Source: a virus (lineage: Duplodnaviria > Heunggongvirae > Uroviricota > Caudoviricetes). Taken from it: a stretch of DNA of 11,868 bases. How positions within the stretch are numbered: position 1 is the first letter of the stretch; each line of letters opens with the position of its first letter. The notes under the pieces were generated by a model, which saw only the letters and a program-made list of their open reading frames with translations, did no database searches and was not told the DNA's origin. A program made the translations under genes and the position numbers. The stretch is taken from IMG/VR virus record IMGVR_UViG_2778261165_000018, positions 1 to 11,868 of that record; one strand, written 5' to 3'. Below, piece by piece: positions 1 to 11,868 of the stretch.

Positions 1-342
1 ATGATGAAAAAAAGTATTCTGGCGTTTCTGTTACTCACCAGTTCTGCAGCGGCGCTGGCGGCACCGCAGGTGATTACCGTCAGCCGTTTTGAAGTGGGTA
101 AAGACAAATGGGCGTTTAATCGCGAAGAGGTGATGCTGACTTGCCGACCGGGTAATGCTTTGTATGTCATCAACCCAAGTACCCTCGTGCAGTATCCTTT
201 AAACGATATCGCACAAAAGGAAGTTGCCAGTGGGAAGACTAAAGCCCAGCCGATTTCGGTGATTCAGATTGATGATCCTAACAATCCCGGCGAAAAAATG
301 AGTCTGGCACCGTTTATAGAACGAGCTGAAAAACTCTGTTAA
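1..342 (+). CDS. yebY: Host DUF2511-family secreted protein (YebY-like), 113 aa with N-terminal signal peptide
   Basis: ATG at 1, TAA at 340-342. N-terminus [22 protein letters not shown] is a typical Sec signal peptide with an AXA cleavage motif. Sequence matches my recollection of E. coli YebY; not verified by search. Confidence 0.75.
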
Positions 343-370
343 TTACCTAAATAGCCTTTTGATTTCCAAT

Positions 371-412
371 AAAAAAACCGCCTCAGTTCTTTCACCAGAA
401 CGGGCGGTTTTT
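371..412. terminator. Intrinsic terminator downstream of yebY, bidirectional in form
   Basis: A7 run (371-377), GC-rich hairpin CCGCC...GGCGG (378-407) with inner stem GTTCT/AGAAC, then T5 (408-412). A-run before and T-run after allow termination in both directions. Confidence 0.7.
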
Positions 413-486
413 AACATTTAAGCTGATGACTACCGCGCTTTTTATTGACCATTTTGCACGCAAACTGGAAAACCTGGCGTCGTCAT

Positions 487-496
487 CTATTCTTAA
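487..496 (+). promoter_or_regulatory. Sigma-S type -10 element (CTATTCTTAA) for the downstream small RNA
   Basis: CTATTCTTAA is a 9/10 match to the RpoS-type extended -10 (CTATACTTAA) and includes the -13 C. Hexamer TATTCT at 488-493 puts the predicted start near 500. Confidence 0.45.
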
Positions 497-499
497 AGG

Positions 500-603
500 G
501 CAAGGCAACTAAGCCTGCATTAATGCCAACTTTTAGCGCACGGCTCTCTCCCAAGAGCCATTTCCCTGGACCGAATACAGGAATCGTATTCGGTCTTTTT
601 TTA
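500..603 (+). ncRNA. sdsR: Candidate SdsR (RyeB) RpoS-dependent small RNA, about 104 nt
   Basis: Predicted start about 500 (GCAAGGC...). Internal palindrome GCATTAATGC (about 518-527), hairpin GGCTCT/AGAGCC (542-559), and terminal hairpin GACCGAATAC/GTATTCGGTC (569-595) followed by T7 (596-602). No ORF with an RBS. I recall sdsR/ryeA lying next to yebY in E. coli and Salmonella. Confidence 0.55.
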
Positions 604-686
604 ATTGTATTTAAAATCAATCAGTTGCAAACGTCTTCCCGAAATTCCCCGAAATTTACTCGAATTTCTGTATTCCGGTCTTTTTT
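586..686. other. Candidate prophage attL region: two core-like 17-mers, IHF consensus site and tandem 10-bp repeats
   Basis: GTATTCGGTCTTTTTTT (586-602) recurs as GTATTCCGGTCTTTTTT (670-686). IHF consensus WATCAANNNNTTR matched at 615-627 (AATCAATCAGTTG). Three 10-bp-phased repeats CCCGAAATTC / CCCGAAATTT / ACTCGAATTT at 638-667. Integrase stop lies 47 bp further in, at 734. Confidence 0.4.
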
Positions 687-733
687 GGTTATATCACAAC
701 CAAAACACATTTAACAATCCATTTACGTTAAAA

Positions 734-1810
734 TCAGAGCAGTAAGTACGTTTTTTCTCGCTCATCAAGATACATTTTTGTTGTCTTCTCCGATGTGTGA
801 CCAAGTAGGCGCTGGGCAAATTCTTCTCCACATGTTTCTTTGTACAATCGTCCAGCCAGACTTCTGATCTCGTGAAAAGTTGGTGGGTTTTCACTGAACT
901 GGATACCTGTTAATTTTCTGGCTGCGACAAATTTTTTTGTCAGGCCATCCGGGTGAATGCTGCCGTCAGGGCTGTTTTTTCTAATCCCGGCACTGATTAG
1001 ATAATCTCCCCGGCTTACCAGGCGGCACCGTTCAACTACTGTACCAAGCCGTAGACCAGCGACAGGAAGGCTGAGTGACAGGGGGATAGCAATCATCATT
1101 CCTGTCTTAATTTGCCTGATGTGGAGACGATCATCATAAATATCACTGAACCGCATATTCGTTATGTCTTCGCGACGTTGTCCTGTTACAAGGGCTAAAT
1201 CCATAGCTAATGGGAACCATGCCGGCAGTTGATCTGCTGCCTCCCTGATGCAGTTGTATGTCTTTAGTTTCAGTCGTTCTCTTGTAACTACTATTTTCGG
1301 TGCTCTTGTTGGCGTTACTGGATTTTGAGATATACGTCCTTCAACAATGGCCTCGCGAAACATATCAGACAACACAGAACGCATTGATCCTGCCATTGTG
1401 TTTTTCCCTCCTTCAATCCACAAATCAAGAAACTCGGCAATATGGCGAGTTGTTATTTCTGTCAGTAAAATCCCTCCCAATTTTTCTTTTATTGTCTCCA
1501 GTTGATTTACCCGAATTTTATAAGTATTTCTGGACACTTTTCTCCTTATAAGAATCGTTTTGTAACGTTCAATCCAGTCTGCCATAGTAAATGAGTCGAA
1601 CCCTTTAAGCTTTTCAATTAAGGCAGCAGGAGAGTAGTTTTTGTATATATAATGATTTGCTTCAATTGCCTGCGCTACTGCATCTCTTCTTGAAATTTTA
1701 CCTAGTGTAAATTCTTCTTTCGTCAGAGGGTTGCGCCAGTAATATGCTTTGTCCCTCCTTCGATATGTTAAGTTTTTAGGCAAATTGGGATCGTATTTTT
1801 TCCGCTGCAT
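734..1810 (-). CDS. int: Lambda-family tyrosine integrase, 358 aa
   Basis: Collinear with lambda Int as recalled: N-terminal arm-binding region ([15 protein letters not shown]), catalytic-region motifs ([40 protein letters not shown]). RBS GGAGAAG 8 nt upstream of ATG at 1810. Confidence 0.9.
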
Positions 1811-2057
1811 GTTTTAACTTCTCCAGTAACGGACTGTCTCTCCCTTGTCGCCCATTAGGCTGATGGTGTGTTATATCGGTATCAACCTTATTTGGGTTGA
1901 TATAGAAAGCCTCCGGAACCACTCTGTAACTCCTCCCGTGTAGTTCAGGTGCAGGATAAATGTTTCCATTCCTTGCCCATCGTCTCAGCGTTGATATTGA
2001 TGGTGGGTTATCCGGATATCTGAGTTTTCCCCACGTTTTGAGTGTCACAAGATTCAT
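1776..2057 (-). CDS. xis: Excisionase (lambda Xis-like)
   Basis: Motif TLRRWARNGNIYPAPELHGRSYRV resembles lambda Xis (ETVRRWVRECRIFPPPVKDGREYLF). 3' end overlaps the int start by 35 nt as in lambda. Start chosen at the ATG at 2057 (RBS AAGAGG 7 nt upstream); the ATG at 2063 is too close to the RBS. Confidence 0.7.
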   Translation of the reverse strand: MNLVTLKTWGKLRYPDNPPSISTLRRWARNGNIYPAPELHGRSYRVVPEAFYINPNKVDTDITHHQPNGRQGRDSPLLEKLKHAAEKIRSQFA

Positions 2058-2163
2058 TGCCATACCTCTTACGATATGACCGCCAGTAAATATACAGAAT
2101 ACTGGCGGGTGTGGTTGATTTTTAATAATCAGCTATGAAGTTCTAATTTGTATATAATGCAAC

Positions 2164-2352
2164 TCACGAGGACAGAAGCTTCTCGCAATTAAAATTTATC
2201 AGCTTTACTTTCTGCTCTCTGGAAACGCCTGCTTCTTTTTTCCCTGAGAGCATTTTTTCGCATTCTGATTTCGTTAATTTAGATTTTGAATATCTTGTCC
2301 AGTTAGTAGGAGTGCCACCTTCTTTTTCAATAGTGGCAGTTATTTTATACAT
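2164..2352 (-). CDS. ydaC: Small prophage protein, YdaC-like, 62 aa
   Basis: ORF MYKITATIEKEGGTPTNWTRY... with RBS GGAGGTG directly upstream of the ATG at 2352. Overlaps the ralR stop by 8 nt. Position between xis and ralR matches Rac as I recall it. Confidence 0.6.
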   Translation of the reverse strand: MYKITATIEKEGGTPTNWTRYSKSKLTKSECEKMLSGKKEAGVSREQKVKLINFNCEKLLSS

Positions 2353-2539
2353 GAACACCTCCATTATTATTTCCAGTAGTTCGTTTATTCCATCTTTCGA
2401 GTGCTTCTTTTTCACTTCCACCATAGCCAGTTCGGGATTCGCATCCGTTGCATTTTGCCCGGTAATATCCTGAAATTGCTTTCACCGTAACAGATGGACA
2501 ACCACAAAACGGACATGGTTTAACATCGTCATATCTCAT
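2345..2539 (-). CDS. ralR: Restriction alleviation protein RalR/Lar (zinc-ribbon), 64 aa
   Basis: MRYDDVKPCPFCGCPSVTV...AKCNGCESRTGYG has a CxxC...CxxC zinc ribbon and matches my recollection of K-12 RalR. In-frame upstream ATGs at 2551 and 2578 would give 68 or 77 aa. Confidence 0.8.
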   Translation of the reverse strand: MRYDDVKPCPFCGCPSVTVKAISGYYRAKCNGCESRTGYGGSEKEALERWNKRTTGNNNGGVHV

Positions 2540-2595
2540 AATTTTTGTCATAAAAACTGTCTCACGTTGGCGGTGCATTACACCGCCAGGCTGAA

Positions 2596-3405
2596 TTATT
2601 CTTCTGAATTATCGATTACACTGTATTCCCCGGTTAATACAGAGGAGTCTGCCGGATCGATTGTCAGTGGTTCCTTTTCATCCATTGATACTGCACGCTG
2701 GATTTCAATTGAGACTGGCAGGTATTTAAACAGGCGACGAATAGCCGTTTTTTTTGCCATTTCTTCCCAGTGAGTTACCCATGGCCCGTTATTACCAGCC
2801 TTACTCTGGCTGCGCACCAGTTCAATCTGTTTGCGCGTCATAACTTCAAACTGAGTCCCTCCGTCTTTCAGTCTTGCGACAGCATAGACGTGGGTCACTG
2901 GTGCATCTTCGTTTTCTCCCGGGCGGTGTATTAACTTTTCATCAAGGCCAAATTCAAAACTAAACTCGTCACCTTCACGGACAACACGGGCTGACAGGCT
3001 GGCGATTTGACCAGAACGGCGAGCCAGATCAATCATGCCGCGATAACCAATGATTAGCTGAACGTTCTTTTTACCGCTCTTTTCGTTTTTATTACCAAAA
3101 GGCAGTAAATATGCGTGGCCGAGGGCGCTACCTGGCTCAAGGCCGAGCTGTGAACACTGAACGATCGCACTGACAAAACTCATGGTGTCACAGTTTCCTA
3201 GCGCCGGAACCTTACGAATTTCTGTGGTGGCGATACGTATCATTCGTTCAGCCGTCATATGGCGTGGGAGAGCTGCTGCCAGTTGCTCTTTCATTGATGG
3301 CTGATTAATAAAGCTGATCACGTCGTTATTTTTTACTGCTGCTGGTGCACGGTTTCCCTGGGTTTTTTGCAGATCGGCTTTTGCGATAGGTGGTTGCTTA
3401 GTCAT
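2596..3405 (-). CDS. recT: RecT single-strand annealing recombinase, 269 aa
   Basis: [27 protein letters not shown]... matches recalled Rac RecT over its whole length. RBS GGAG 7 nt upstream. Start overlaps the recE stop (3398-3405), indicating translational coupling. Confidence 0.9.
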
Positions 3406-6073
3406 TTGCATACTCCTTAGCCCAGCGGGGCAGTGATAACGTTTTAATAGCTGGCCATTCATCGGTATTCAGGCAGTCAGCCAGGGTCCTCAGATTGCGG
3501 TGATATTCCTGCTGGCCTGCCAGTTTTGCTTCTTCGCCCATCATGAAAATCTCAACCGGGTAACGTCCGCATTCAACAGTTGTGCTGGCAACCAGAAAAA
3601 CGAAAGTTGGCAGCACGCCAAACTGTGCTTCATAACCGTCACTGTAGAATGCATCCTGAACGTGATAGCGGTAGTCGTAATAAGCCGTTTTGAATCGTTG
3701 AATATCCGCTGTGGTTTTCACGTCCATGATCCAGTGAAATTCAGGAATAATTTTGTCCGGACGGCACCGACACAAAATTCCTGTTTCAGGATCTTCCCAG
3801 TAAATTGATGATTCAGCGTGTCCGGCGCTTTCAACAAGCCATTGACCCAGCGGCAAAGCCATAACGCTCTGATACATGAGTTCAATTTTCCGGCCTTCTT
3901 CGGCAGTGATAACCGTTTTTCCTGTGCTTGCGCATTCCATCAGAAACGCTTTCTCCTCTTCTTTTCCGGCGGTTGTACGGCGGTTAAATTCAGGTGCCAC
4001 GATAAAGCGGTTACTGAATTCTTCCGGTTCAAGTACACGGCAGTGGAAAGCGGTTCCTAAATCGAGCGTTTTTGTCTTTGTGGTGTCCACTGGGGCATTT
4101 TTACGCCACAAATACAGAGCCGGAGTATCAGCAATGTCGTCGAGCTGAGACTTACTGACACCGGGACCCGCGTGGTAATTCTCATTCGAAATTCCGTAAT
4201 AAATACCAGGCTCTATGTCTCCTGCGATTACGGGATCTGCGACTTCGCCAGTTTCATCACTGCAATCGCGATGCGGATCGCTGCCAGCATTCTCATTGTG
4301 CGGATGTTCAGGGCCTTCCATTTCCTCCGGATCTTTTTCCTGAGATTCATCCAGATTTTCTTCATTAAAGGTTTCCTGATACGTGGTGTCGCCCATCACC
4401 GCGCCACAATCAGGGCAGTTGCCGCCACCGCTCTGACCGCAGGCGGCACAGACTTTTTCCGGTTCCTGTTGCGCTACTGGTTCAGATTGTTTCGTTTCTG
4501 GCTCGTTTTTCTGTGCATTTGGGCTGTTTTGTTCCGCTTTCTGGTTGTTTTGTTCCGATTCGGGCTGGTTCTGGTTCACAGAATCTCGGGTTTCAATTCC
4601 CTTAACCCATTTCGGATCATTCGGGTCGCTAATCCCTTCAACAAATTCTCCGCGAGAGGCAGCCAGCAATTTGTCGGCATCGACAGGATTTTTGGGCGGA
4701 ATGGTTTTCCGGGCTTCATGGAGTTCTGCCCGCAGTTTCTGATATTTCGCATCAACAGAATTTACCTGTGACTGAGCATCCAGCGGCTGCGTGTCCTGAT
4801 GATGTTCAGTTGCATCCGGTTCCACTGTTTCAGCCGTTGCCTGTTTATCTGCCATTGCGCAAGATGGTTGCGGTTTTTCTTCACCATCGTGTTTTCCTTC
4901 TTCTGTTACACGCTGCGGCATCGGGGCAGAGGAACGACCGCAGGCAATATCCACGATTTCCGGATCAGGGTTGGCATGATCGGTTTCAATCAGCACCTTG
5001 TTCAGATATTCAGTGACATGCGCAGGGATAACCTCGATCCCAATTGGTGCTTCTTTTACGGACGCAACCACGATGGCGCGGGAATAATCCAGCCCGCCAG
5101 GCATGGTGATGAATTTGTCGCGGAAAACAGAAAAGGGCGGTTTATTTTCAGCGATAATTTCCTCGACACGTTTAGCGTGTGCCGGATGAAGGTTATAAAT
5201 GTCCACGTCCATTGAACGAGCCAGTACGCCAGTGGCTACGTCGCGCGCCAGTGACGTCAGATCGTGAACGAAACCTTCGCCGCGATCGGTGAGGTTCCCG
5301 CCGCCAGCATTAGCGCCGGAAGCCGTGCGCGTGATGCGTGAAACACGATTTCCTTTCATCCACTCTTTTGTCAGCAGACCGCGATCGGTGTAGTCTGCGT
5401 CCAGGTATGCTTCGAAAAAAGCAGTCATCAGCCCCAGGCTTGAATTGCCTGGATTAGGGAACACTCTGTCAGTATCACGCACCAGTTTGTGGAGATCGCG
5501 AATTTCCAGCGGGTCGAGCAGGCTGGTTTTGTGGGAAACAGCCAGGGCAGTAACAGCTGGTAGTTCTTCAGCCCGTGCAATGTGTAATGCCTGGAGTTCG
5601 TCGCGTGAAACGTGCGTTACCGGTTTTTCGCTGCCGTGTTGAGCAAGCCAGCGAATGGGCAGCTCCTGACCGGAAATCGGGAGTAGCATATTCTCCTCAA
5701 TCTCCGTCATGTCTTCGCCATTAACATTGGTATTGTCAGTGCTGGCTGGCTTGTCCTGCGCAGAGGATGAGGGCGCGATAAATACCATTGTGATGCCATC
5801 TTCCCCGCCTTTTTCGTAACGGTTGCAGAATTCCGTATCAAATACGCCTTCTGGTGGAAGGTCATCAACAACGGGCAAATTGACGCAAACAGGTTTTTTA
5901 AAGTCATCTTCATCGTAGCCAGCATCGTCAATCGCAACAGCACCACGGGAGATGGCAATGGATAATTTTTTCGCTTCAGCCCAGTAGAAACCGCCTTTAA
6001 TACCGAGACGTTTTCTTACTTTGTCATTTTTTGCTTCGTAATACAGTGGGTAAACTTGTTTATCGGTGCTCAT
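3398..6073 (-). CDS. recE: RecE exonuclease VIII, 891 aa
   Basis: C-terminal two-thirds (from [17 protein letters not shown] to the end ...[11 protein letters not shown]) matches recalled K-12 RecE, including the nuclease domain. The N-terminal roughly 110 residues differ from what I recall. ATG at 6073 with RBS GAGGT. Confidence 0.9.
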
Positions 6074-6143
6074 TGTTTTTTAACCTCAACTCAGATTAAA
6101 ATTAATGCGAGTGATGAATAAATGTCCCAGGTTCTTCACTCAG

Positions 6144-6173
6144 GCCTGCACAGTGTGCAGGCTTTCTTTTTTT
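6144..6173 (+). terminator. Plus-strand intrinsic terminator between racC stop and recE start
   Basis: Stem GCCTGCA (6144-6150), loop CAGTG, stem TGCAGGC (6156-6162), then TTTCTTTTTTT (6163-6173). It has terminator form only on the plus strand, opposite to the flanking genes. Confidence 0.5.
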
Positions 6174-6448
6174 CAGATTTCACCTTTTAATTTCATTGCA
6201 ATCAGAGTTGCCAGAAATTCGGCTTTTTTTTCTGCGGGCAGATTCTTTCCTATGTGCACCAGACACATTTTTTTAACACCATCGTTAAGTGTTTTAACGT
6301 TGCCTGATGGACCGTCGATATCAACCACAGTGAATGGGGTTTCTTTATTTTCTGTCTTAATCACGTAGCCAATACGCTTTCCTTCCAGGGTAACTTCGTG
6401 AACAATGTCATCAGTAGTAACAACAGTGGCTTCATAACTGGTAATCAT
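6173..6448 (-). CDS. racC: RacC, 91 aa prophage protein
   Basis: MITSYEATVVTTDDIVHEV... matches recalled K-12 RacC. RBS AAGGAGAAAAAC precedes the ATG at 6448. The longer track ORF starting at 6496 lacks an RBS. Confidence 0.8.
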   Translation of the reverse strand: MITSYEATVVTTDDIVHEVTLEGKRIGYVIKTENKETPFTVVDIDGPSGNVKTLNDGVKKMCLVHIGKNLPAEKKAEFLATLIAMKLKGEI

Positions 6449-6522
6449 GTTTTTCTCCTTAATTAAGGTTGAGCGAATCCCTGCCATTGCTGGCATAAAT
6501 TCAGTTTCGGATAGTCAGTTAA

Positions 6523-6693
6523 TTAAAGTTCGTGTGCCATCTGGTCTTTTTCGGCACAGATTTCACTACAATATTTTTTCATTTCCGTCGTTGGTATAAC
6601 TCCACGCATGAAATGAAGTGGTCTTGTAATGATTTTGCTTTCTTCAATTTCTTTATTGCAAAGGTGATAAGCACATTTTATTTTCTTAGTCAT
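6523..6693 (-). CDS. ydaE: YdaE-like small zinc-binding protein, 56 aa (absent from the ORF track)
   Basis: My translation of the minus strand: [56 protein letters not shown], with paired cysteines C-x4-C and C-x3-C. Its ATG overlaps the kilR stop (TAATG at 6691-6695). Confidence 0.7.
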   Translation of the reverse strand: MTKKIKCAYHLCNKEIEESKIITRPLHFMRGVIPTTEMKKYCSEICAEKDQMAHEL

Positions 6694-6914
6694 TACCATG
6701 ACTCCGCCTTTACAGGTAAACCATCACGACCGAGGAAGACTCTAATCATGCAGTCAGAAATGCATGTTTTTGTAGTCAGGCTACGAATATAAAGTTTTCG
6801 CTTTTTAATATTGTTTGCCGAGGCGATATATGTCCGACCTTCATGAAGAACATAATCGCCAGGGGTCACACACTGACGTGGTATTTCATCAGTTCCGAAG
6901 TGATGAGCAATCAT
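6693..6914 (-). CDS. kilR: KilR cell-division inhibitor, 73 aa
   Basis: [35 protein letters not shown]... matches recalled K-12 KilR. RBS GGAGAT 6 nt upstream of the ATG at 6914. Confidence 0.8.
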
Positions 6915-7419
6915 AATTATCTCCATTTTTACAAATGAATTTTGTCGATGCGGTGCCTGGTGCCTCCAGGTGACGTTAACCAGTTAACAATTAACGCCGG
7001 ATCGTGATATCACCTAAACAGATACGGGTTGTTTTTAACTGTTCCGCGTGCGCTGAGCCGCATTCACCGCATCACAAAATTCACTTTAAAAAGGACGGAC
7101 ATCAGCCAGCAATGAAACTGATGCCGCCAAAAGGTAATCAACATGGGTTGTTGCAGCGGGGTTGTCACTCAAGCGTATGGTCAACCTGACAACCCGGTGC
7201 TCCACAGGGGGAGGGAGAATAGCACCCCTGCCATACTTACCGCCGCGCCATTTCGCGGATTGCCACAACCGGAAGCGCACGGTCGAAGAAATTTAAAGAC
7301 AAGCCTTCTAAGGGAAAAACACCTCCTCCGTGCGCTTTCGTGTTGTGCGCCTGTCTTTTTACCACTTCAGGCTCGGTGGTATACTGGAGTTCTCACACAA
7401 CCAGTAATAAGGTATTCCG

Positions 7420-7614
7420 ATGGATAATAAAGACAAAGCCTGGCTACTTGCTTTAGCTTTCAGCATCAGATCGCAGCGAGAAACAACTCATCAAGAATTT
7501 TTCTCGGAAATCGAGAATGCTGAGAATGAGTTTTTGTCACTACTCAATGAACGTGATGCTAAAAAAAGCGCCGATTCACTTAAGGCTTGGGCGAAACTAG
7601 GCTCTTCAAAATAA
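7420..7614 (+). CDS. Hypothetical 64 aa protein in the position K-12 Rac gives to sieB
   Basis: ATG at 7420 with RBS AAGGT 6 nt upstream. Candidate promoter TTTTAC (7357-7362), 17 nt spacer, TATACT (7380-7385). No hydrophobic segment, so unlike a SieB membrane protein. Confidence 0.4.
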   Translation: MDNKDKAWLLALAFSIRSQRETTHQEFFSEIENAENEFLSLLNERDAKKSADSLKAWAKLGSSK

Positions 7615-7798
7615 TTGCTTCTGTAGCGGCATGAACAACTGTTTTTGCCGCCTCTTCAACTTCCTTGTCTGGACGACCAGCCTTTACTTTTTCTGCAATG
7701 ACCTCCAGCACAGTTGGAAGAACCTTGCTAATAAGCATGGCTGCCACATCTTTGCTGCACAATTGACCGTTAATAACAACCAGATCTTCACCAACCAT
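7580..7798 (-). CDS. Hypothetical 72 aa protein (possibly the intact form of the short ydaF/ydaG genes of K-12 Rac)
   Basis: ATG at 7798 with strong RBS AAGGGG 7 nt upstream. The track ORF extends to a TTG at 7855 without an RBS. Its 3' end overlaps the convergent 64 aa gene by 35 nt. Confidence 0.5.
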   Translation of the reverse strand: MVGEDLVVINGQLCSKDVAAMLISKVLPTVLEVIAEKVKAGRPDKEVEEAAKTVVHAATEAIILKSLVSPKP

Positions 7799-7977
7799 CT
7801 TTTTTCCCCTTAACGCCGGGTGGCGGAACGTTTTATCTACTGCGCTTTGTATCAATCAACAACTGCCGTCATGTTCGTATGCCTCAGGCTGGCTACTTAG
7901 CCCTGTTCAGTGGCTGGATAACTCGAGGTATTGTCCTGCCGTTCTCTGGTGGGGCGTTGTTTGGATATGACAAATGC

Positions 7978-7990
7978 TCACATATCGTGA
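7978..7990 (-). promoter_or_regulatory. Isolated operator-like site TCACGATATGTGA (read on the minus strand)
   Basis: Exact match to the TCACG-N3-TGTGA motif found three times in the racR/ydaS intergenic region. A perfect TTGACA lies on the minus strand at 8003-7998. Confidence 0.4.
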
Positions 7991-8043
7991 GTGATTTGTC
8001 AACTCAATATGTGAGCAATGTTGTTTTTGGATTTTTGATGGAC

Positions 8044-8076
8044 AAAAAAAGCCCTCGCTAATAGCGAGAGCTTTTT
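8044..8076. terminator. Bidirectional intrinsic terminator downstream of the repressor gene
   Basis: A7 (8044-8050), hairpin GCCCTCGCT/AGCGAGAGC (8051-8071), then TTTTT (8072-8076). Has terminator form in both orientations. Confidence 0.6.
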
Positions 8077-8102
8077 GATTGGAATCGAGGGAGATTAAAG
8101 GT

Positions 8103-8492
8103 TTAGGAGGATTTTTTCTGTTGCCTGCTTCTTAGATATTTTTCCACATACTCATCAAGCTCTTGAAGACGGATTTCGAACAGATCAATCATGCGTGCTT
8201 GTTCTGATCCCGGGAGCTGATTAAACAGCTCTAGCATTTTTTTCTGGTTATCATTTAACCATGAGTACGTGTTTTCCTGTTCACCGAACATTAATTCTGC
8301 GGGGGAAATGCCTAGTACTTGGCCGAGGATGATCGCATCCTCAGCCCCCACACTCCTGGTGCCAGCTTCGTAGTTAGCAATACGAGAAGAACCTGACCAA
8401 CCACATAGTTTTGCCAGGTTTCCCATACTTAATCCTCGATTTAGGCGAGTGGCTTTTAGGCGCTCGCCTATTTGTTCTGCAATCGTTTTCAT
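8103..8492 (-). CDS. racR: Prophage repressor, XRE/Cro-C1 family HTH (RacR-like), 129 aa from the ATG
   Basis: HTH signature LSMGNLAKLCGWSGSSRIANYEAG. Divergent from the cro-like ydaS across an operator-bearing intergenic region. Start taken at MKTIAEQ (8492); the track ORF extends upstream from a TTG. Confidence 0.75.
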   Translation of the reverse strand: MKTIAEQIGERLKATRLNRGLSMGNLAKLCGWSGSSRIANYEAGTRSVGAEDAIILGQVLGISPAELMFGEQENTYSWLNDNQKKMLELFNQLPGSEQARMIDLFEIRLQELDEYVEKYLRSRQQKKSS

Positions 8493-8505
8493 AGTTCCGA
8501 TTTTA

Positions 8506-8567
8506 TCACGATGTGTGAAATTGGCGGTACTCACGTATCTGTAGTTGATCTCACTCACGAAATGTGA
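8506..8567. promoter_or_regulatory. Three-site operator array (OR-like) between racR and ydaS
   Basis: TCACGATGTGTGA (8506-8518), TCACGTATCTGTA (8531-8543), TCACGAAATGTGA (8555-8567). Near-palindromic 13-mers spaced 25 and 24 bp centre to centre. Confidence 0.55.
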
Positions 8568-8572
8568 ATAAT
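8545..8572 (+). promoter_or_regulatory. Candidate rightward promoter for ydaS (pR-like)
   Basis: -35 TTGATC (8545-8550), 16 nt spacer, -10 AATAAT (8567-8572). Operator site 3 overlaps the spacer and -10. Confidence 0.35.
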
Positions 8573-8586
8573 AGAAACAGGAGGTA

Positions 8587-8832
8587 ATGATGAACAAAAT
8601 TTCAACATATCGAAAACAGCTTGGGCTGTCTCAAAGACAACTTGCTGTTCAGTTAGGGTGGATACAAAGCCGACTGGCAAATTACGAAGCAAATTTTCGT
8701 ACCCCTGGGCTAGAGGAGTGCAGAAAAATTGTTTCTACCCTTAATCGGCTTGGTGCTCATTGTGGACTTGACGATGTATTCCCCCCAGACGGTAAGCATA
8801 GCGAAAACAGCATAGGAGCGGTTGATTCATGA
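8587..8832 (+). CDS. ydaS: Cro-like HTH regulator YdaS
   Basis: HTH region LSQRQLAVQLGWIQSRLANYE. RBS GAGG fits the second ATG at 8590 better. Stop overlaps the ydaT start (ATGA at 8829-8832). Confidence 0.8.
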   Translation: MMNKISTYRKQLGLSQRQLAVQLGWIQSRLANYEANFRTPGLEECRKIVSTLNRLGAHCGLDDVFPPDGKHSENSIGAVDS

Positions 8833-9251
8833 AAATCAGGCATGAGCACATCGAATCAGTGTTGTTAGCCCTGGCAGCCGAAAAAGGGCAGGCGTGGGTC
8901 GCTAACGCAATTACTGAAGAATATCTGCGCCAGGGGGGCGGCGAATTGCCCCTTGTACCAGGCAAGGACTGGAACAATCAGCAGAATATCTATCACCGTT
9001 GGTTGAAAGGTGAAACGAAAGCGCAAAGGGAAAAAATTCAGAAACTCATCCCTGCGGTTCTGGCAATTCTTCCGCGCGAGCTGCGTCACCGACTCTGCAT
9101 CTTCGATACCCTGGAACGCCGTGCATTACTGGCGGCGCAGGAAGCGTTGAGTACGGCAATTGATGCGCATGATGATGCAGTACAGGCCGTTTACCGGAAA
9201 GCACATTTCAGCGGTGGTGGGTCGCCCGGCGATTCTGTCGTAGTGCATTGA
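8829..9251 (+). CDS. ydaT: YdaT-like protein (reported toxic partner of YdaS in Rac), 140 aa
   Basis: MKIRHEHIESVLLALAAEKGQAWVANAITEEY... matches recalled K-12 YdaT in length and sequence. Translationally coupled to ydaS. Confidence 0.8.
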   Translation: MKIRHEHIESVLLALAAEKGQAWVANAITEEYLRQGGGELPLVPGKDWNNQQNIYHRWLKGETKAQREKIQKLIPAVLAILPRELRHRLCIFDTLERRALLAAQEALSTAIDAHDDAVQAVYRKAHFSGGGSPGDSVVVH

Positions 9252-9296
9252 TTGAAATTAATCGTGCCGGATTGTTTTGTTCGGTATCAGTTAAAT

Positions 9297-9714
9297 GTAA
9301 CGCTGCGAGCGTTACAAGGTGAAAACAAATGGCTTCAAACTGGATAAAGCTCGAGGTTATTACGCCGGATAAGCCGGAAATATTCAGGCTTGCTGAGATT
9401 CTGAATATTGATCCAGATGCCGCATTAGGGAAGGTTATTCGCTTCTGGGCATGGGCGGATCAACAAATGATAGACGGTAATGCAGATTGTAACGCTCGCG
9501 GCGTTACAAAAAGTGCAATAGATCGCATCACTTTTATGGCTGGTTTTGCTGATGCGTTAATTCAGGTTGGATGGCTGGTCGAAAATGACGTTGGGCTTTC
9601 TCTACCTAACTTTGAACGTCATAACGGAAAAAGCTCTAAAAAACGGGCGGTTACAAACGAGCGAGTTACAAAAATACGCGAACTGAAACGAAAAGGTAAC
9701 GCTGCCAGCGTTAC
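9297..9714. repeat. Iteron-like 19-bp palindromes GTAACGCT-N3-AGCGTTAC (three good copies and one degenerate)
   Basis: GTAACGCTGCGAGCGTTAC (9297-9315, just upstream of the ydaU-like start), GTAACGCTCGCGGCGTTAC (9489-9507), degenerate GTTACAAACGAGCGAGTTACA (9650-9670), GTAACGCTGCCAGCGTTAC (9696-9714). An acidic linker with (GAGGAA)3 and an AT-rich patch follow at 9736-9775. Confidence 0.5.
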
Positions 9715-10117
9715 ACAAACGGATCAAAAAGCGTTACCAGAGGAAGAGGAAGAGGAAGATATAAATACTGATCTCCCCCTAAATCCCCCTCGTCAAAAAC
9801 GAGCGTCTAAAAAATTCGAGCCGGAGGCTATTGAGCTGCCCGATTGGTTGCCGGAAACACTCTGGCATGAGTGGGTCCGGTTCAGACAGGCATTGCGAAA
9901 ACCGATTCGAACGGAGCAGGGCGCTAACGGGGCGATACGGGAACTGGAAAAATTCCGTCAGCAGGGTTTTACACCTGAGCAGGTGATTCGACACAGCATC
10001 GCCAATGAATACCAGGGCCTGTTCGCGCCGAAAGGTGTTCGGCCTGAGACGTTGCTCCGACAGGTTAACACCGTCTCGTTGCCGGACAGTGCGATCCCGC
10101 CAGGCTTCAGGGGGTAA
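9329..10117 (+). CDS. ydaU: Phage replication initiation protein (YdaU-like, lambda O analogue), 262 aa
   Basis: RBS AGGTGA 6 nt upstream of the ATG. Lies immediately upstream of the DnaC-like loader, contains the palindromic repeats and a central acidic linker (EEEEEED). Family assignment is from memory. Confidence 0.7.
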   Translation: MASNWIKLEVITPDKPEIFRLAEILNIDPDAALGKVIRFWAWADQQMIDGNADCNARGVTKSAIDRITFMAGFADALIQVGWLVENDVGLSLPNFERHNGKSSKKRAVTNERVTKIRELKRKGNAASVTQTDQKALPEEEEEEDINTDLPLNPPRQKRASKKFEPEAIELPDWLPETLWHEWVRFRQALRKPIRTEQGANGAIRELEKFRQQGFTPEQVIRHSIANEYQGLFAPKGVRPETLLRQVNTVSLPDSAIPPGFRG

Positions 10118-10123
10118 CGGACC

Positions 10124-10870
10124 ATGAAAAATATTGCGACAGGCGGCGTTCTGGAACGCATCCGCCGACTGACCCCGCCACATGTAACCGCCCCATTCAG
10201 AACGGTAGCGGAGTGGCGCGAGTGGCAACTTGCTGAAGGCCAGAAACGTAGCGAGGAGATCAACCGCCTGAATCGCCAGTTGCGGGTGGAAAAAATTCTG
10301 AATCGCTCAGGCATCCAGCCGTTGCACCGTAAATGCTCGTTTGCGAATTACCAGGTGCAGAACGACGGCCAGCGATACGCGTTAAGCCAGGCGAAATCCA
10401 TCACCGATGAACTGATGACCGGGTGTACAAATTTTGCGTTCAGCGGAAAACCTGGTACCGGGAAGAATCACTTAGCGGCAGCTATCGGGAATCGCCTGCT
10501 GAAAGACGGTCAGACAGTGATTGTGGTTACCGTGGCTGATGTTATGAGCGCCCTGCACGCCAGCTATGACGACGGGCAGTCAGGCGAAAAATTTTTGCGG
10601 GAGCTGTGCGAAGTGGATCTGCTGGTTCTTGATGAAATTGGCATTCAGCGCGAGACAAAAAACGAGCAGGTGGTGCTGCACCAGATTGTTGATCGCCGGA
10701 CAGCGTCGATGCGCAGCGTGGGGATGCTGACAAACCTGAACTATGAGGCCATGAAAACATTGCTCGGCGAGCGGATTATGGATCGCATGACCATGAACGG
10801 CGGGCGATGGGTGAATTTTAACTGGGAGAGCTGGCGTCCGAATGTCGTCCAGCCAGGAATTGCGAAGTGA
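10124..10870 (+). CDS. ydaV: DnaC-like replicative helicase loader (AAA+ ATPase, IstB-like), 248 aa
   Basis: Walker [14 protein letters not shown] and Walker [10 protein letters not shown]. Length and sequence match recalled K-12 YdaV. Confidence 0.9.
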
Positions 10871-10892
10871 TTTTTACCGGGAGGAAATTTTA

Positions 10893-11645
10893 ATGGAAAC
10901 TGTATTTGACGCACTGAAAGCAATGGGAAAAGCCACGTCGGTAGAACTGGCTGCGCGACTTGATATCAGTCGTGAAGAGGCTGTCAACGAGCTGTGGGAA
11001 CTCAAAAGAAATGGCGTTGTTGATAAAACTGGTCACACCTGGTCTCTGGCTGGCGAAGGTGAATCCCGGGTAACCGAAGAGCGGCCAGTAAAATCTGAAG
11101 CACAGGATATGCTGACCGGGGAGGTCGAACAAAAAGTTACCGCAGACATGATGATTGAGTTTATCGGTCAGGATGGGGCTAAAACGTGTGAGGAACTGGC
11201 GGGTAAGTTCGGTGTCAGTACTCGCAAGGTTGCTTCCACGCTGGCGGTGGTAACCGCAACGGGGCGGCTGGCACGCGTTAATCAGAACGGTAAATTTCGT
11301 TACTGCATGCCGGGCGATAATTTACCAGCAGAGCCGAAAGCCGCGCTGGTAACGGAAAGTGATGGTAAGGCCTTTCCTCAACCAGCAGGTGTTGCGTTAC
11401 CGGGACAGGAAGCTGCAACACAGGAAGATATTAAAACAGAAACTGTGGCAGACATTGTGCAGCCGCTTGAGAAGCGAGTGGATAATCTGGTTCTGCCATC
11501 GCTGCGACAGGCAAACCGCGAACTGCGTCGGGCGAAAAGTGATATCCGGAAATGGGAGCGAGTCTGTGTCGCGCTGCGGGAGCTGAATAAATATCGCGAT
11601 ATTGTCGCCCAGCTTTGCCAGGAGGCAACCAGTGAGCAAAATTAA
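10893..11645 (+). CDS. Hypothetical prophage protein with two winged-helix-like segments and a C-terminal helical region (YdaW-like), 250 aa
   Basis: Start chosen at the ATG at 10893 (RBS GGGAGG about 9 nt upstream) rather than the track start at 10842, which overlaps ydaV. Two helix-turn-helix-like stretches (around [26 protein letters not shown] and [21 protein letters not shown]). Confidence 0.6.
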
Positions 11646-11868
11646 CTATCAGGCACTACGTGAGATAGCAAAACAGGCAACACAGGGCGAATGGGTCGCG
11701 TTTATTTCGACGGGTACAGGTACGTATGCTGTGCATACGCCCGGTGATAAACGATGTGAAGATGTTATCAAATGGACCGGCTTTGATGGACTGAAAAACG
11801 CAGAGAACAACGCTCGTTATATTGCCGCATTCAACCCAAAGGTTGCACTGGAGCTACTTGGTGAAATT
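11632..11868 (+). CDS. Hypothetical prophage protein, 5' partial (runs off the window end)
   Basis: GTG at 11632 preceded by GGAGG (11621-11625) at 6 nt. Open frame to the window end ([28 protein letters not shown]...). Overlaps the upstream gene's stop by 14 nt. Confidence 0.5.

Follow-up and report, generated by a model that had tools for sequence, protein, structure and literature searches.

A mosaic recE in a Rac-like prophage with a probable old alternative allele of the RecE head domain

The stretch of DNA analysed here, hereafter the window, comprises 11,868 nt (positions 1-11,868 of IMG/VR record IMGVR_UViG_2778261165_000018) and contains the left arm of a Rac-like lambdoid prophage inserted beside yebY, as annotated by way of Escherichia coli K-12 and O157. 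The chromosomal yebY and small-RNA genes are followed by genes for an integrase, an excisionase, and the RalR/RalA toxin-antitoxin pair, after which come, read from the left, recT, recE, racC, ydaE, kil, and then immunity and replication genes (Table 1). The same gene arrangement beside yebY is found in an O157:H7 genome. The genes recT and recE have 8 nt in common at the 3' end of recE, as they do in K-12; a longer recT open reading frame was also listed, which begins upstream of the K-12 start (MTKQPPIAK). The racC homologue upstream of recE is the same in both of the head-allele backgrounds described below.

Table 1. Coordinates, in window positions, of the genes, predicted domains, and mosaic joints considered in this study
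Feature	Position	Strand	Description and basis
yebY	1-342		chromosomal
SraC/RyeA-SdsR/RyeB small-RNA locus	462-606		chromosomal
358-aa integrase and excisionase	right of the small-RNA locus	-	
RalR/RalA toxin-antitoxin pair	between excisionase and recT		
recT	2596..3405	-	ORF translation; K-12 annotation; annotated recT in identical genomes
recE (exodeoxyribonuclease VIII)	3398..6073	-	891 codons and stop; ORF, NF007259, PF06630, PF12684
K-12-type PD-(D/E)XK nuclease domain	3401..4225	-	codons 617-891; PF12684, 3H4R
Second UMNK88-like segment	4406..4585	-	codons 497-556; identity profile, BLASTP gap
Helical module	5324..5737	-	codons 113-250; second half of PF06630
Predicted disordered linker	5723..5764	-	residues 104-117; contains the 3' mosaic joint
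Exchanged cassette	5736..6065	-	330 bp, codons 3-112; gap between blastn HSPs
Folded head domain (predicted)	5765..6073	-	residues 1-103; AlphaFold2 models, family alignment
5' joint	6066..6103	-	38-nt island identical to K-12 (AATTTTAATCTGAGTTGAGGTTAAAAAACAATGAGCAC); three-way print, blastn
racC homologue	6173..6448	-	directly upstream of recE; 25-30/30 per block versus K-12 racC

The recE gene of the window shares its ATG start, and the GAGG ribosome-binding site before it, with K-12 recE. The NCBIfam equivalog model NF007259 (PRK09709) covers residues 1-891 of its product with model positions 1-877 of 877 at 1825.8 bits (cut-off 1269), PF12684 matches residues 640-875 (E 2.7e-27), and the structure PDB 3H4R matches residues 630-891 (E 1.1e-177). 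In a four-way identity profile, the DNA of the nuclease domain is 95-100% identical to that of K-12, and the BLASTP alignment shows an identical RPD...MDVK stretch, which we take to be the active-site motif of the PD-(D/E)XK superfamily. The DNA identity of this domain to its K-12 counterpart suggests that the window RecE would be a 5'-3' dsDNA exonuclease. The pairing of recE with recT is annotated as such in genomes with an identical recE. The 2676-bp recE of the window occurs at 100% identity in seven complete genomes (chickens) and at 95-99.9% identity in many independent, unrelated complete genomes, everywhere annotated as recE, exodeoxyribonuclease VIII, and these occurrences rule out an assembly artefact. 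The window RecE is a known protein and not a new kind, the exact recE being already present, and correctly named, in RefSeq genomes.

For comparison with K-12, we used recE from NC_000913.3 and its product NP_415866.1 (b1350). An initial annotation, made from the sequence alone, had held that the protein tracks K-12 RecE from residue 113 onwards and differs from it over the N-terminus (5738-6073), and it had called for a pairwise alignment of the two proteins. In that alignment (BLASTP), the window and K-12 proteins are 86% identical over residues 48-891, with near-identity starting at N113-T-N-V-N-G-E-D-M; residues 48-112 align weakly and residues 1-47 are unaligned, which bears out the difference that had been supposed for the N-terminus. 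At the nucleotide level (blastn, word 7), identity to K-12 is 92.4% from window position 5735 down to 2400, through recT, and 87% over positions 7082-6066, the last part of the latter segment being ATGAGCAC. No similarity to K-12 DNA was detected by this search between 5735 and 6066. Because the blastn HSPs end at these two positions with no match between them, we delimit the exchanged cassette as 5736-6065, which comes close to the coordinates first proposed.

The cassette encodes an alternative allele of the head domain together with most of the linker that follows it. It begins right after ATGAGCAC and stops at CAATACCAA (Asn-Thr-Asn), and at 330 bp, versus 297 bp in K-12, it is 11 codons longer in the window. 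When a global alignment with K-12 is divided into 30-nt blocks, those within the cassette have 10-15/30 identical positions, except for one 22/30 island (5856-5885, encoding NLPVVDDLP), and the flanking blocks have 26-30/30; the discontinuity in identity is far beyond chance. On the 5' side, the 38-nt island of identity reaches from the ribosome-binding site over the ATG to codon 3 and is a likely crossover substrate; the intergenic DNA just upstream of it (about 6104-6160, roughly 60 nt) diverges again before racC is reached. On the 3' side, the joint lies at codon 112/113 (5735/5736), where homology to K-12 resumes at CAATACCAA.

The head of the window RecE and that of K-12 RecE share 24-26% of their residues. 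The 112 residues of the window head nonetheless pass the PF06630 gathering score on their own (28.5 bits versus 25, E 1.7e-6), in a hit that pairs only residues 51-96 with profile positions 42-86; the K-12 head scores 210.5 bits. Over the full proteins, PF06630 spans residues 2-178 of K-12 RecE but only 52-189 of the window RecE. The window head alone also matches positions 1-111 of NF007259 (187.8 bits, E 2.9e-55), and hhalign aligns the window-class and K-12-class profiles with a probability of 99.1% (E 4.3e-19) over 94 columns at 26% identity, pairing columns 16-110 with columns 10-104. Residues 1-190, searched against 1.84 billion cluster representatives, yielded ninety relatives, among which bridging sequences (P0109, P0123, P0127, P0122, and others) match both heads over residues of about 8-92 (local phmmer). 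When the head was used as query in a protein-homologue search, almost only fragments were returned. The alignment of the relatives forms one domain family with the consensus KAKKKSG...FW..A.....DAG...DF.KPVRTN.PVVDDLP.EGVFD..FC.RY.L..DG.TW., within which the window class is set apart by 5 inserted residues in the basic loop.

On the strength of the PF06630, NF007259, and hhalign matches and the bridging relatives, the N-terminus is a deeply diverged allele of the same domain and not a new module. Of the module swap that had been proposed for this end of the gene, the mosaic itself is upheld, with sharp joints on both sides and a nuclease and recT that are K-12-like, but the incoming segment is a homologous, diverged allele and not an unrelated module. 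Taken jointly with the recombination and the shared function discussed below, it is quite likely that the window and K-12 heads are two old allelic classes of one domain of ~100 residues, which forms the first part of PF06630. The most conserved residues of the family (P61, D71, P73, E75, and D79) are common to both alleles, and C83 is conserved at 90% or more otherwise but is absent from the K-12 clade, K-12 itself having Ser. Residues 1-55, the N-terminal half of the head, are almost wholly different between the alleles. Comparison of the window head with the same class of head from UMNK88 gives a dN/dS of 0.14 with a dS of 0.76, and comparison with the head from ML35 gives a dN/dS of 0.18; to judge by these ratios, the head is under purifying selection.

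Structures were predicted with AlphaFold2, both for a 630-aa model with a 42-sequence alignment and for the head separately. The predicted head consists of a strand (6-14), a helix (17-23), a strand (27-34), and a helix (37-50), followed by an extended segment, PVVDDLPxEG...C.RY, which has short strands and is conserved in the family alignment. Over residues 1-100, the pLDDT of the 630-aa model is 86-97; the head-only model (mean pLDDT 78.8, pTM 0.66) agrees with it. Immediately downstream, pLDDT drops below 50, over residues 104-117 in the longer model and 102-113 in the head-only model. As part of the explanation that we prefer, the head is quite probably a non-catalytic module that folds autonomously. 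Beyond the linker, the longer model predicts helical modules at 118-250 and 260-390 with a glycine-rich stretch between them, helices at 439-473, a small cysteine-rich element near 540-560, and disorder over 391-437, 491-538, and 561-630.

Mosaicism extends over the whole gene. According to the identity profile, codons 2-112 are of a type common to the window and UMNK88, codons 113-260 are common to the window, K-12, and UMNK88, codons 260-398, 439-476, and 617 to the end are K-12-like, and codons 497-556 are UMNK88-like. The helical module of codons 113-250 has 85-98% DNA identity with both K-12 recE and the DnaQ-type exonuclease gene of UMNK88, with a dN/dS of 0.08-0.09. The second UMNK88-like segment is 88-97% identical to the UMNK88-type gene versus 50-58% to K-12 and contains a 14-residue insertion relative to K-12 as well as a CxxC-x7-CxxC motif. 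All of the breakpoints in identity (at about codons 113, 260, 398, 439/476, 497/556, and 617) fall in or at the edges of low-confidence segments, the domain boundaries being predicted ones. The recE of the window thus behaves as a multi-parent mosaic, like a string of beads in which exchange takes place at the gaps.

We searched 5426 complete E. coli genomes with the head DNA as query. The window-type head is present in 834 of them (159 at an identity of at least 90% and 675 at 80-90%) and the K-12-type head in 1690. Among the matches listed, in samples of 30 rows, the window-type heads of at least 90% identity sit on recE, those of 80-90% identity on genes whose annotation reads exonuclease or 3'-5' exonuclease, and the K-12-type heads on recE. 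Both alleles occur in one genome, PEC178, on two recE genes. Other recE genes likewise carry a head of the window type, with 95-100% identity in DNA. Among the representatives, its partners are a K-12-type nuclease, a second PD-(D/E)XK type, a DnaQ-type nuclease, or no nuclease, and those of the K-12-type head are PD-(D/E)XK, DnaQ (P0072), and RecT (P0071) sequences. The head additionally occurs in functional phages, namely the Stx phages 75/02 and POCJ13, mEp237, HK225, and Klebsiella phages. In the representatives, it always lies at the N-terminus of this one protein family and was not seen elsewhere. The family is thus one of hyper-mosaic enterobacterial phage proteins with variable C-terminal ends (two kinds of PD-(D/E)XK nuclease, a DnaQ-like 3'-5' exonuclease, a RecT-like sequence, or no nuclease) and a head that is constant at the N-terminus. 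The single donor lineage that the initial annotation had expected for residues 1-112 does not emerge, the same head being found on different recE genes and on DnaQ-type genes.

Mosaics of lambdoid phages and defective prophages are attributed, from both experiment and genomics, mainly to homology-driven, divergence-tolerant recombination (De Paepe et al., PMC3945230). The head cassette would have been exchanged by homology-driven recombination between lambdoid prophages, with crossovers in conserved DNA, that is, in the 38-nt island around the start codon and its ribosome-binding site on one side and in the sequence from codon 113, within the disordered linker, on the other. An exchange of this sort agrees with the conserved flanks, the reuse of the cassette elsewhere, and the existence of a genome in which both alleles occur; since both alleles lie between the same conserved flanks, neither its direction nor the recombinant lineage can be read from them. 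Cassette exchange of this kind is ordinary, textbook lambdoid module shuffling, and its product had already been sequenced. The explanation that accounts best for the locus as a whole, and which we hold with considerable confidence, combines a mosaic recE, old head alleles, homology-driven cassette exchange, and a function of the head that is shared by the alleles.

As to that function, a 2023 review lists the N-terminal region of RecE as a domain of unknown function and states that the RecE nuclease domain alone substitutes genetically (PMC11611040); a passage of the same review credits full-length RecE with better linear-linear recombination. The ETfinder paper (PMC13490951) has nothing on the RecE N-terminus, and no literature on PF06630 was found by Pfam name or accession. 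No solved structure in the PDB covers the head, 3H4R being the nuclease domain only, and a fold search of the head against solved structures and viral models returned nothing informative. When the K-12, O157, UMNK88, and ML35 loci were compared with the window, no neighbouring gene was found to co-vary with the type of head. The head would serve a shared accessory role, for example as a tether between the enzyme and either DNA or an invariant partner, probably of the host. Since the PVVDDLPxEG..D core is kept in both alleles, the two probably do the same job; if they do, the swap would leave nuclease activity and the pairing with RecT unchanged, and it is most likely functionally near-neutral.

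The almost complete difference of residues 1-55, together with the 5-residue insertion that alters the length of the basic loop, makes a change of specificity possible. The swap could accordingly be read as an adaptive switch, in which each allele recognises its own partner, be it a host factor, a component of defence or anti-defence, or a DNA structure, and both are kept by balancing or diversifying selection, a reading that we consider unlikely. Alleles that are 24-26% identical within flanking DNA that is 87-98% identical would suit it, as would the frequency of both alleles in E. coli, their co-occurrence in PEC178, and the free reassortment of the head with downstream modules. However, no neighbour co-varies with the head, racC, ydaE, kil, ralR, and recT being the same in K-12 and the window, and the window-type head also accompanies a different RecT-family gene (ML35) or no recT at all (UMNK88). 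Moreover, dN/dS within the class is purifying and not diversifying, the conserved core residues are common to both alleles, and sharply bounded, deeply split allelic classes are usual for lambdoid phage genes, where no selection on specificity is needed (PMC3945230). The corresponding view of the domain itself, as an undescribed targeting or anchoring module that would deliver the fused enzyme to a partner or DNA structure, with the alleles as specificity variants, is similarly doubtful.

Two further readings concern the origin of the head and are far less probable than a specificity switch. The first 112 residues might have come from an unrelated gene that was fused by illegitimate recombination, which would account for the unaligned residues 1-47 in BLASTP, the absence of DNA similarity across the 330-bp cassette in blastn, and the restriction of the PF06630 match to residues 52-189; the hhalign probability of 99.1% over 94 columns, the intermediates, whose matches to both heads run over residues of about 8-92, and the 187.8-bit match of the head alone to NF007259 positions 1-111 refute such a foreign fused domain, and a head that is N-terminal in one protein family only, and not seen elsewhere, also speaks against it, so that we give this origin very little credence. 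Least probable of all is that the head changed in place, by locally accelerated evolution within one recE lineage. The divergence does affect a single domain, in a gene that is conserved otherwise, but both joints are sharp to within a few nucleotides; the same allele recurs, 98.5% identical, in another recE, and a DnaQ-type gene carries the other allele; and the rest of the gene contains further, independent mosaic segments. The high dS (0.76) within the head class, together with its low dN/dS, also indicates that the difference reflects age and not positive selection. Hyper-divergence in place is disfavoured by these joints, by the reuse of the allele, and by the other mosaic segments.

Exchange of old head alleles by homologous recombination thus remains our preferred account. 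RecET direct cloning works through full-length RecE, whose N-terminal region has no assigned function (PMC11611040); if the targeting reading were true, the RecE of the window would be guided in another way than the K-12 enzyme on which that method draws. Natural head variants on nearly identical RecE proteins, such as those of the window and K-12, are ready-made material for probing what the head does, and the constant N-terminal head, with mosaic joints that track predicted linkers, maps the domains along which these long proteins can be dissected.

Among known systems, the RecE of the K-12 Rac prophage is like that of the window in the racC-recE-recT-ralR gene order, the start codon, the ribosome-binding site, the 8-nt overlap with recT, the 92% DNA identity from codon 113 on, and the PD-(D/E)XK domain (PF12684, 3H4R). 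It differs in its head allele (24-26% identity, with the window 11 codons longer) and over the second diverged segment, codons 497-556 of the window, where the window has a 14-residue insertion. The sites of integration differ as well, the window prophage lying beside yebY with a 358-aa integrase and K-12 Rac at ttcA with IntR. There is no material difference between the NF007259 model and the window protein; the model already describes such a sequence.

The Rac RecE of ML35 (WP_000102216.1, 1041 aa) is 98-100% identical in DNA to the window from kil through about recE codon 450 and carries the window head allele at 98.5% DNA identity. Past codon ~450 the two part, ML35 having a different and longer C-terminal nuclease region; its recE is then followed by a different, 350-aa RecT-family gene, and its prophage lies at ttcA with IntR/XisR, as in K-12. 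The 813-aa 'exonuclease' of UMNK88 (WP_000102141.1), encoded by a dicB-type lambdoid prophage, has a head of the same class as the window (85% identity in protein and about 83% in DNA) and is collinear with the window RecE over its N-terminal ~620 residues, including modules 113-260 and 477-616. Its residues 260-400 form another module than those of the window RecE, however, and its C-terminus is a DnaQ-like 3'-5' exonuclease (PF16473, Rv2179c-like) and not a PD-(D/E)XK nuclease. The UMNK88 gene adjoins an integrase in a dicB/ydfC context, with no recT after it.

Nuclease-less relatives termed 'RecE-2' and DnaQ-type nucleases have been recorded in lambdoid early-left operons by a 2025 survey, which expressly leaves domain shuffling unanalysed (PMC12315714). 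Nuclease-less proteins with the same head among our representatives (P0069, P0074, P0094-P0099, P0104, and P0124) fit the RecE relatives of that survey, to which they are likened by description; unlike 'RecE-2', the window RecE has an intact K-12-type nuclease. Phage lambda Exo (Red-alpha), which at 226 aa, unlike RecE, lacks both the head and the long N-terminal region, is a functional analogue of the C-terminal nuclease and acts with an annealase in single-strand-annealing recombination (PMC11611040).

The recE gene carried by the window is mosaic beyond its head, the N-terminal domain of about 100 residues that occurs as two deeply diverged alleles (window-type and K-12-type). Codons 497–556 (window 4406–4585), which include a 14-residue insertion (the [14 protein letters not shown] region), are 88–97% identical to the UMNK88 gene, which encodes an 813-residue DnaQ-type exonuclease with a window-type head, and 50–58% identical to K-12 recE; judged by these identities, they are a second mosaic segment. 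The recE of Escherichia coli ML35, which likewise has a window-type head, is K-12-like at the matching segment, and at least three ‘parents’ are therefore indicated for the window gene. Co-resident substrates of the kind that cassette exchange needs are found in E. coli PEC178 (NZ_CM168017.1), which has two recE genes (at approximately 2,099,718 and 2,639,991), one with each head allele.

Features located in the window, with coordinates and strand
Feature	Position	Strand	Remarks
SraC/RyeA and SdsR/RyeB small-RNA genes	462–606	both	between yebY and integrase
Prophage integrase	734–1810	−	
RalA antitoxin small RNA, intact	2168–2346	+	Rfam RF02694, 215.8 bits
RalR toxin ORF	2345–2539	−	adjoins RalA
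CxxC-x7-CxxC motif	4406–4450		RecE 542–556; C542/C545/C553/C556
Short motif [10 protein letters not shown]	4607–4636		RecE 480–489; surroundings poorly conserved, mostly disordered
Alternative-frame ORF, 83 codons	5707–5958	−	in head-coding region; same strand as recE

The head-coding region also holds an open reading frame in an alternative frame, and several database ‘proteins’ (e.g. the RecE relatives P0018, P0019, P0027, and P0039) switch from head sequence to that of the alternative frame (…[19 protein letters not shown]…). Such composites point to frameshifted or pseudogenised copies; the open reading frame is no argument for a second gene. Two further relatives in the representative library join RecE to RecT: P0071 consists of K-12 RecE from residue 1 to approximately 515 followed in frame by the C-terminal part of RecT, without the nuclease domain, and P0136 combines a RecE-type N-terminal region with RecT-like sequence. 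Both may have arisen naturally, by deletion or fusion, or they may be artefacts of assembly.

The motif at RecE residues 480–489 recurs in 21 of the 36 full-length family representatives, irrespective of head or nuclease type, and a second motif, SN[EKQ][GV]EK.E, is present in 15 of the 36 and absent from window RecE; the two resemble short linear interaction motifs. The CxxC-x7-CxxC cysteines, which are kept in K-12 RecE and in the UMNK88 exonuclease and are modelled with moderate confidence, possibly form a small zinc ribbon within the linker that precedes the nuclease domain.

Between racC and recE, a GC-rich hairpin of 10 bp is found at 6142–6164, and 6104–6160 is an additional small mosaic patch. 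The hairpin has its T-run exclusively on the plus strand and so does not stand out as a terminator for transcription running from racC into recE. K-12 has other sequence at this position, also with an inverted repeat.

As in K-12 Rac, RalA lies beside RalR. The insertion site differs: K-12 Rac is inserted at ttcA, whereas the position of the small-RNA genes places the Rac-like prophage of the window beside the ryeA/ryeB locus, and the same arrangement at yebY/ryeA/ryeB is found in an O157:H7 genome (n = 1).
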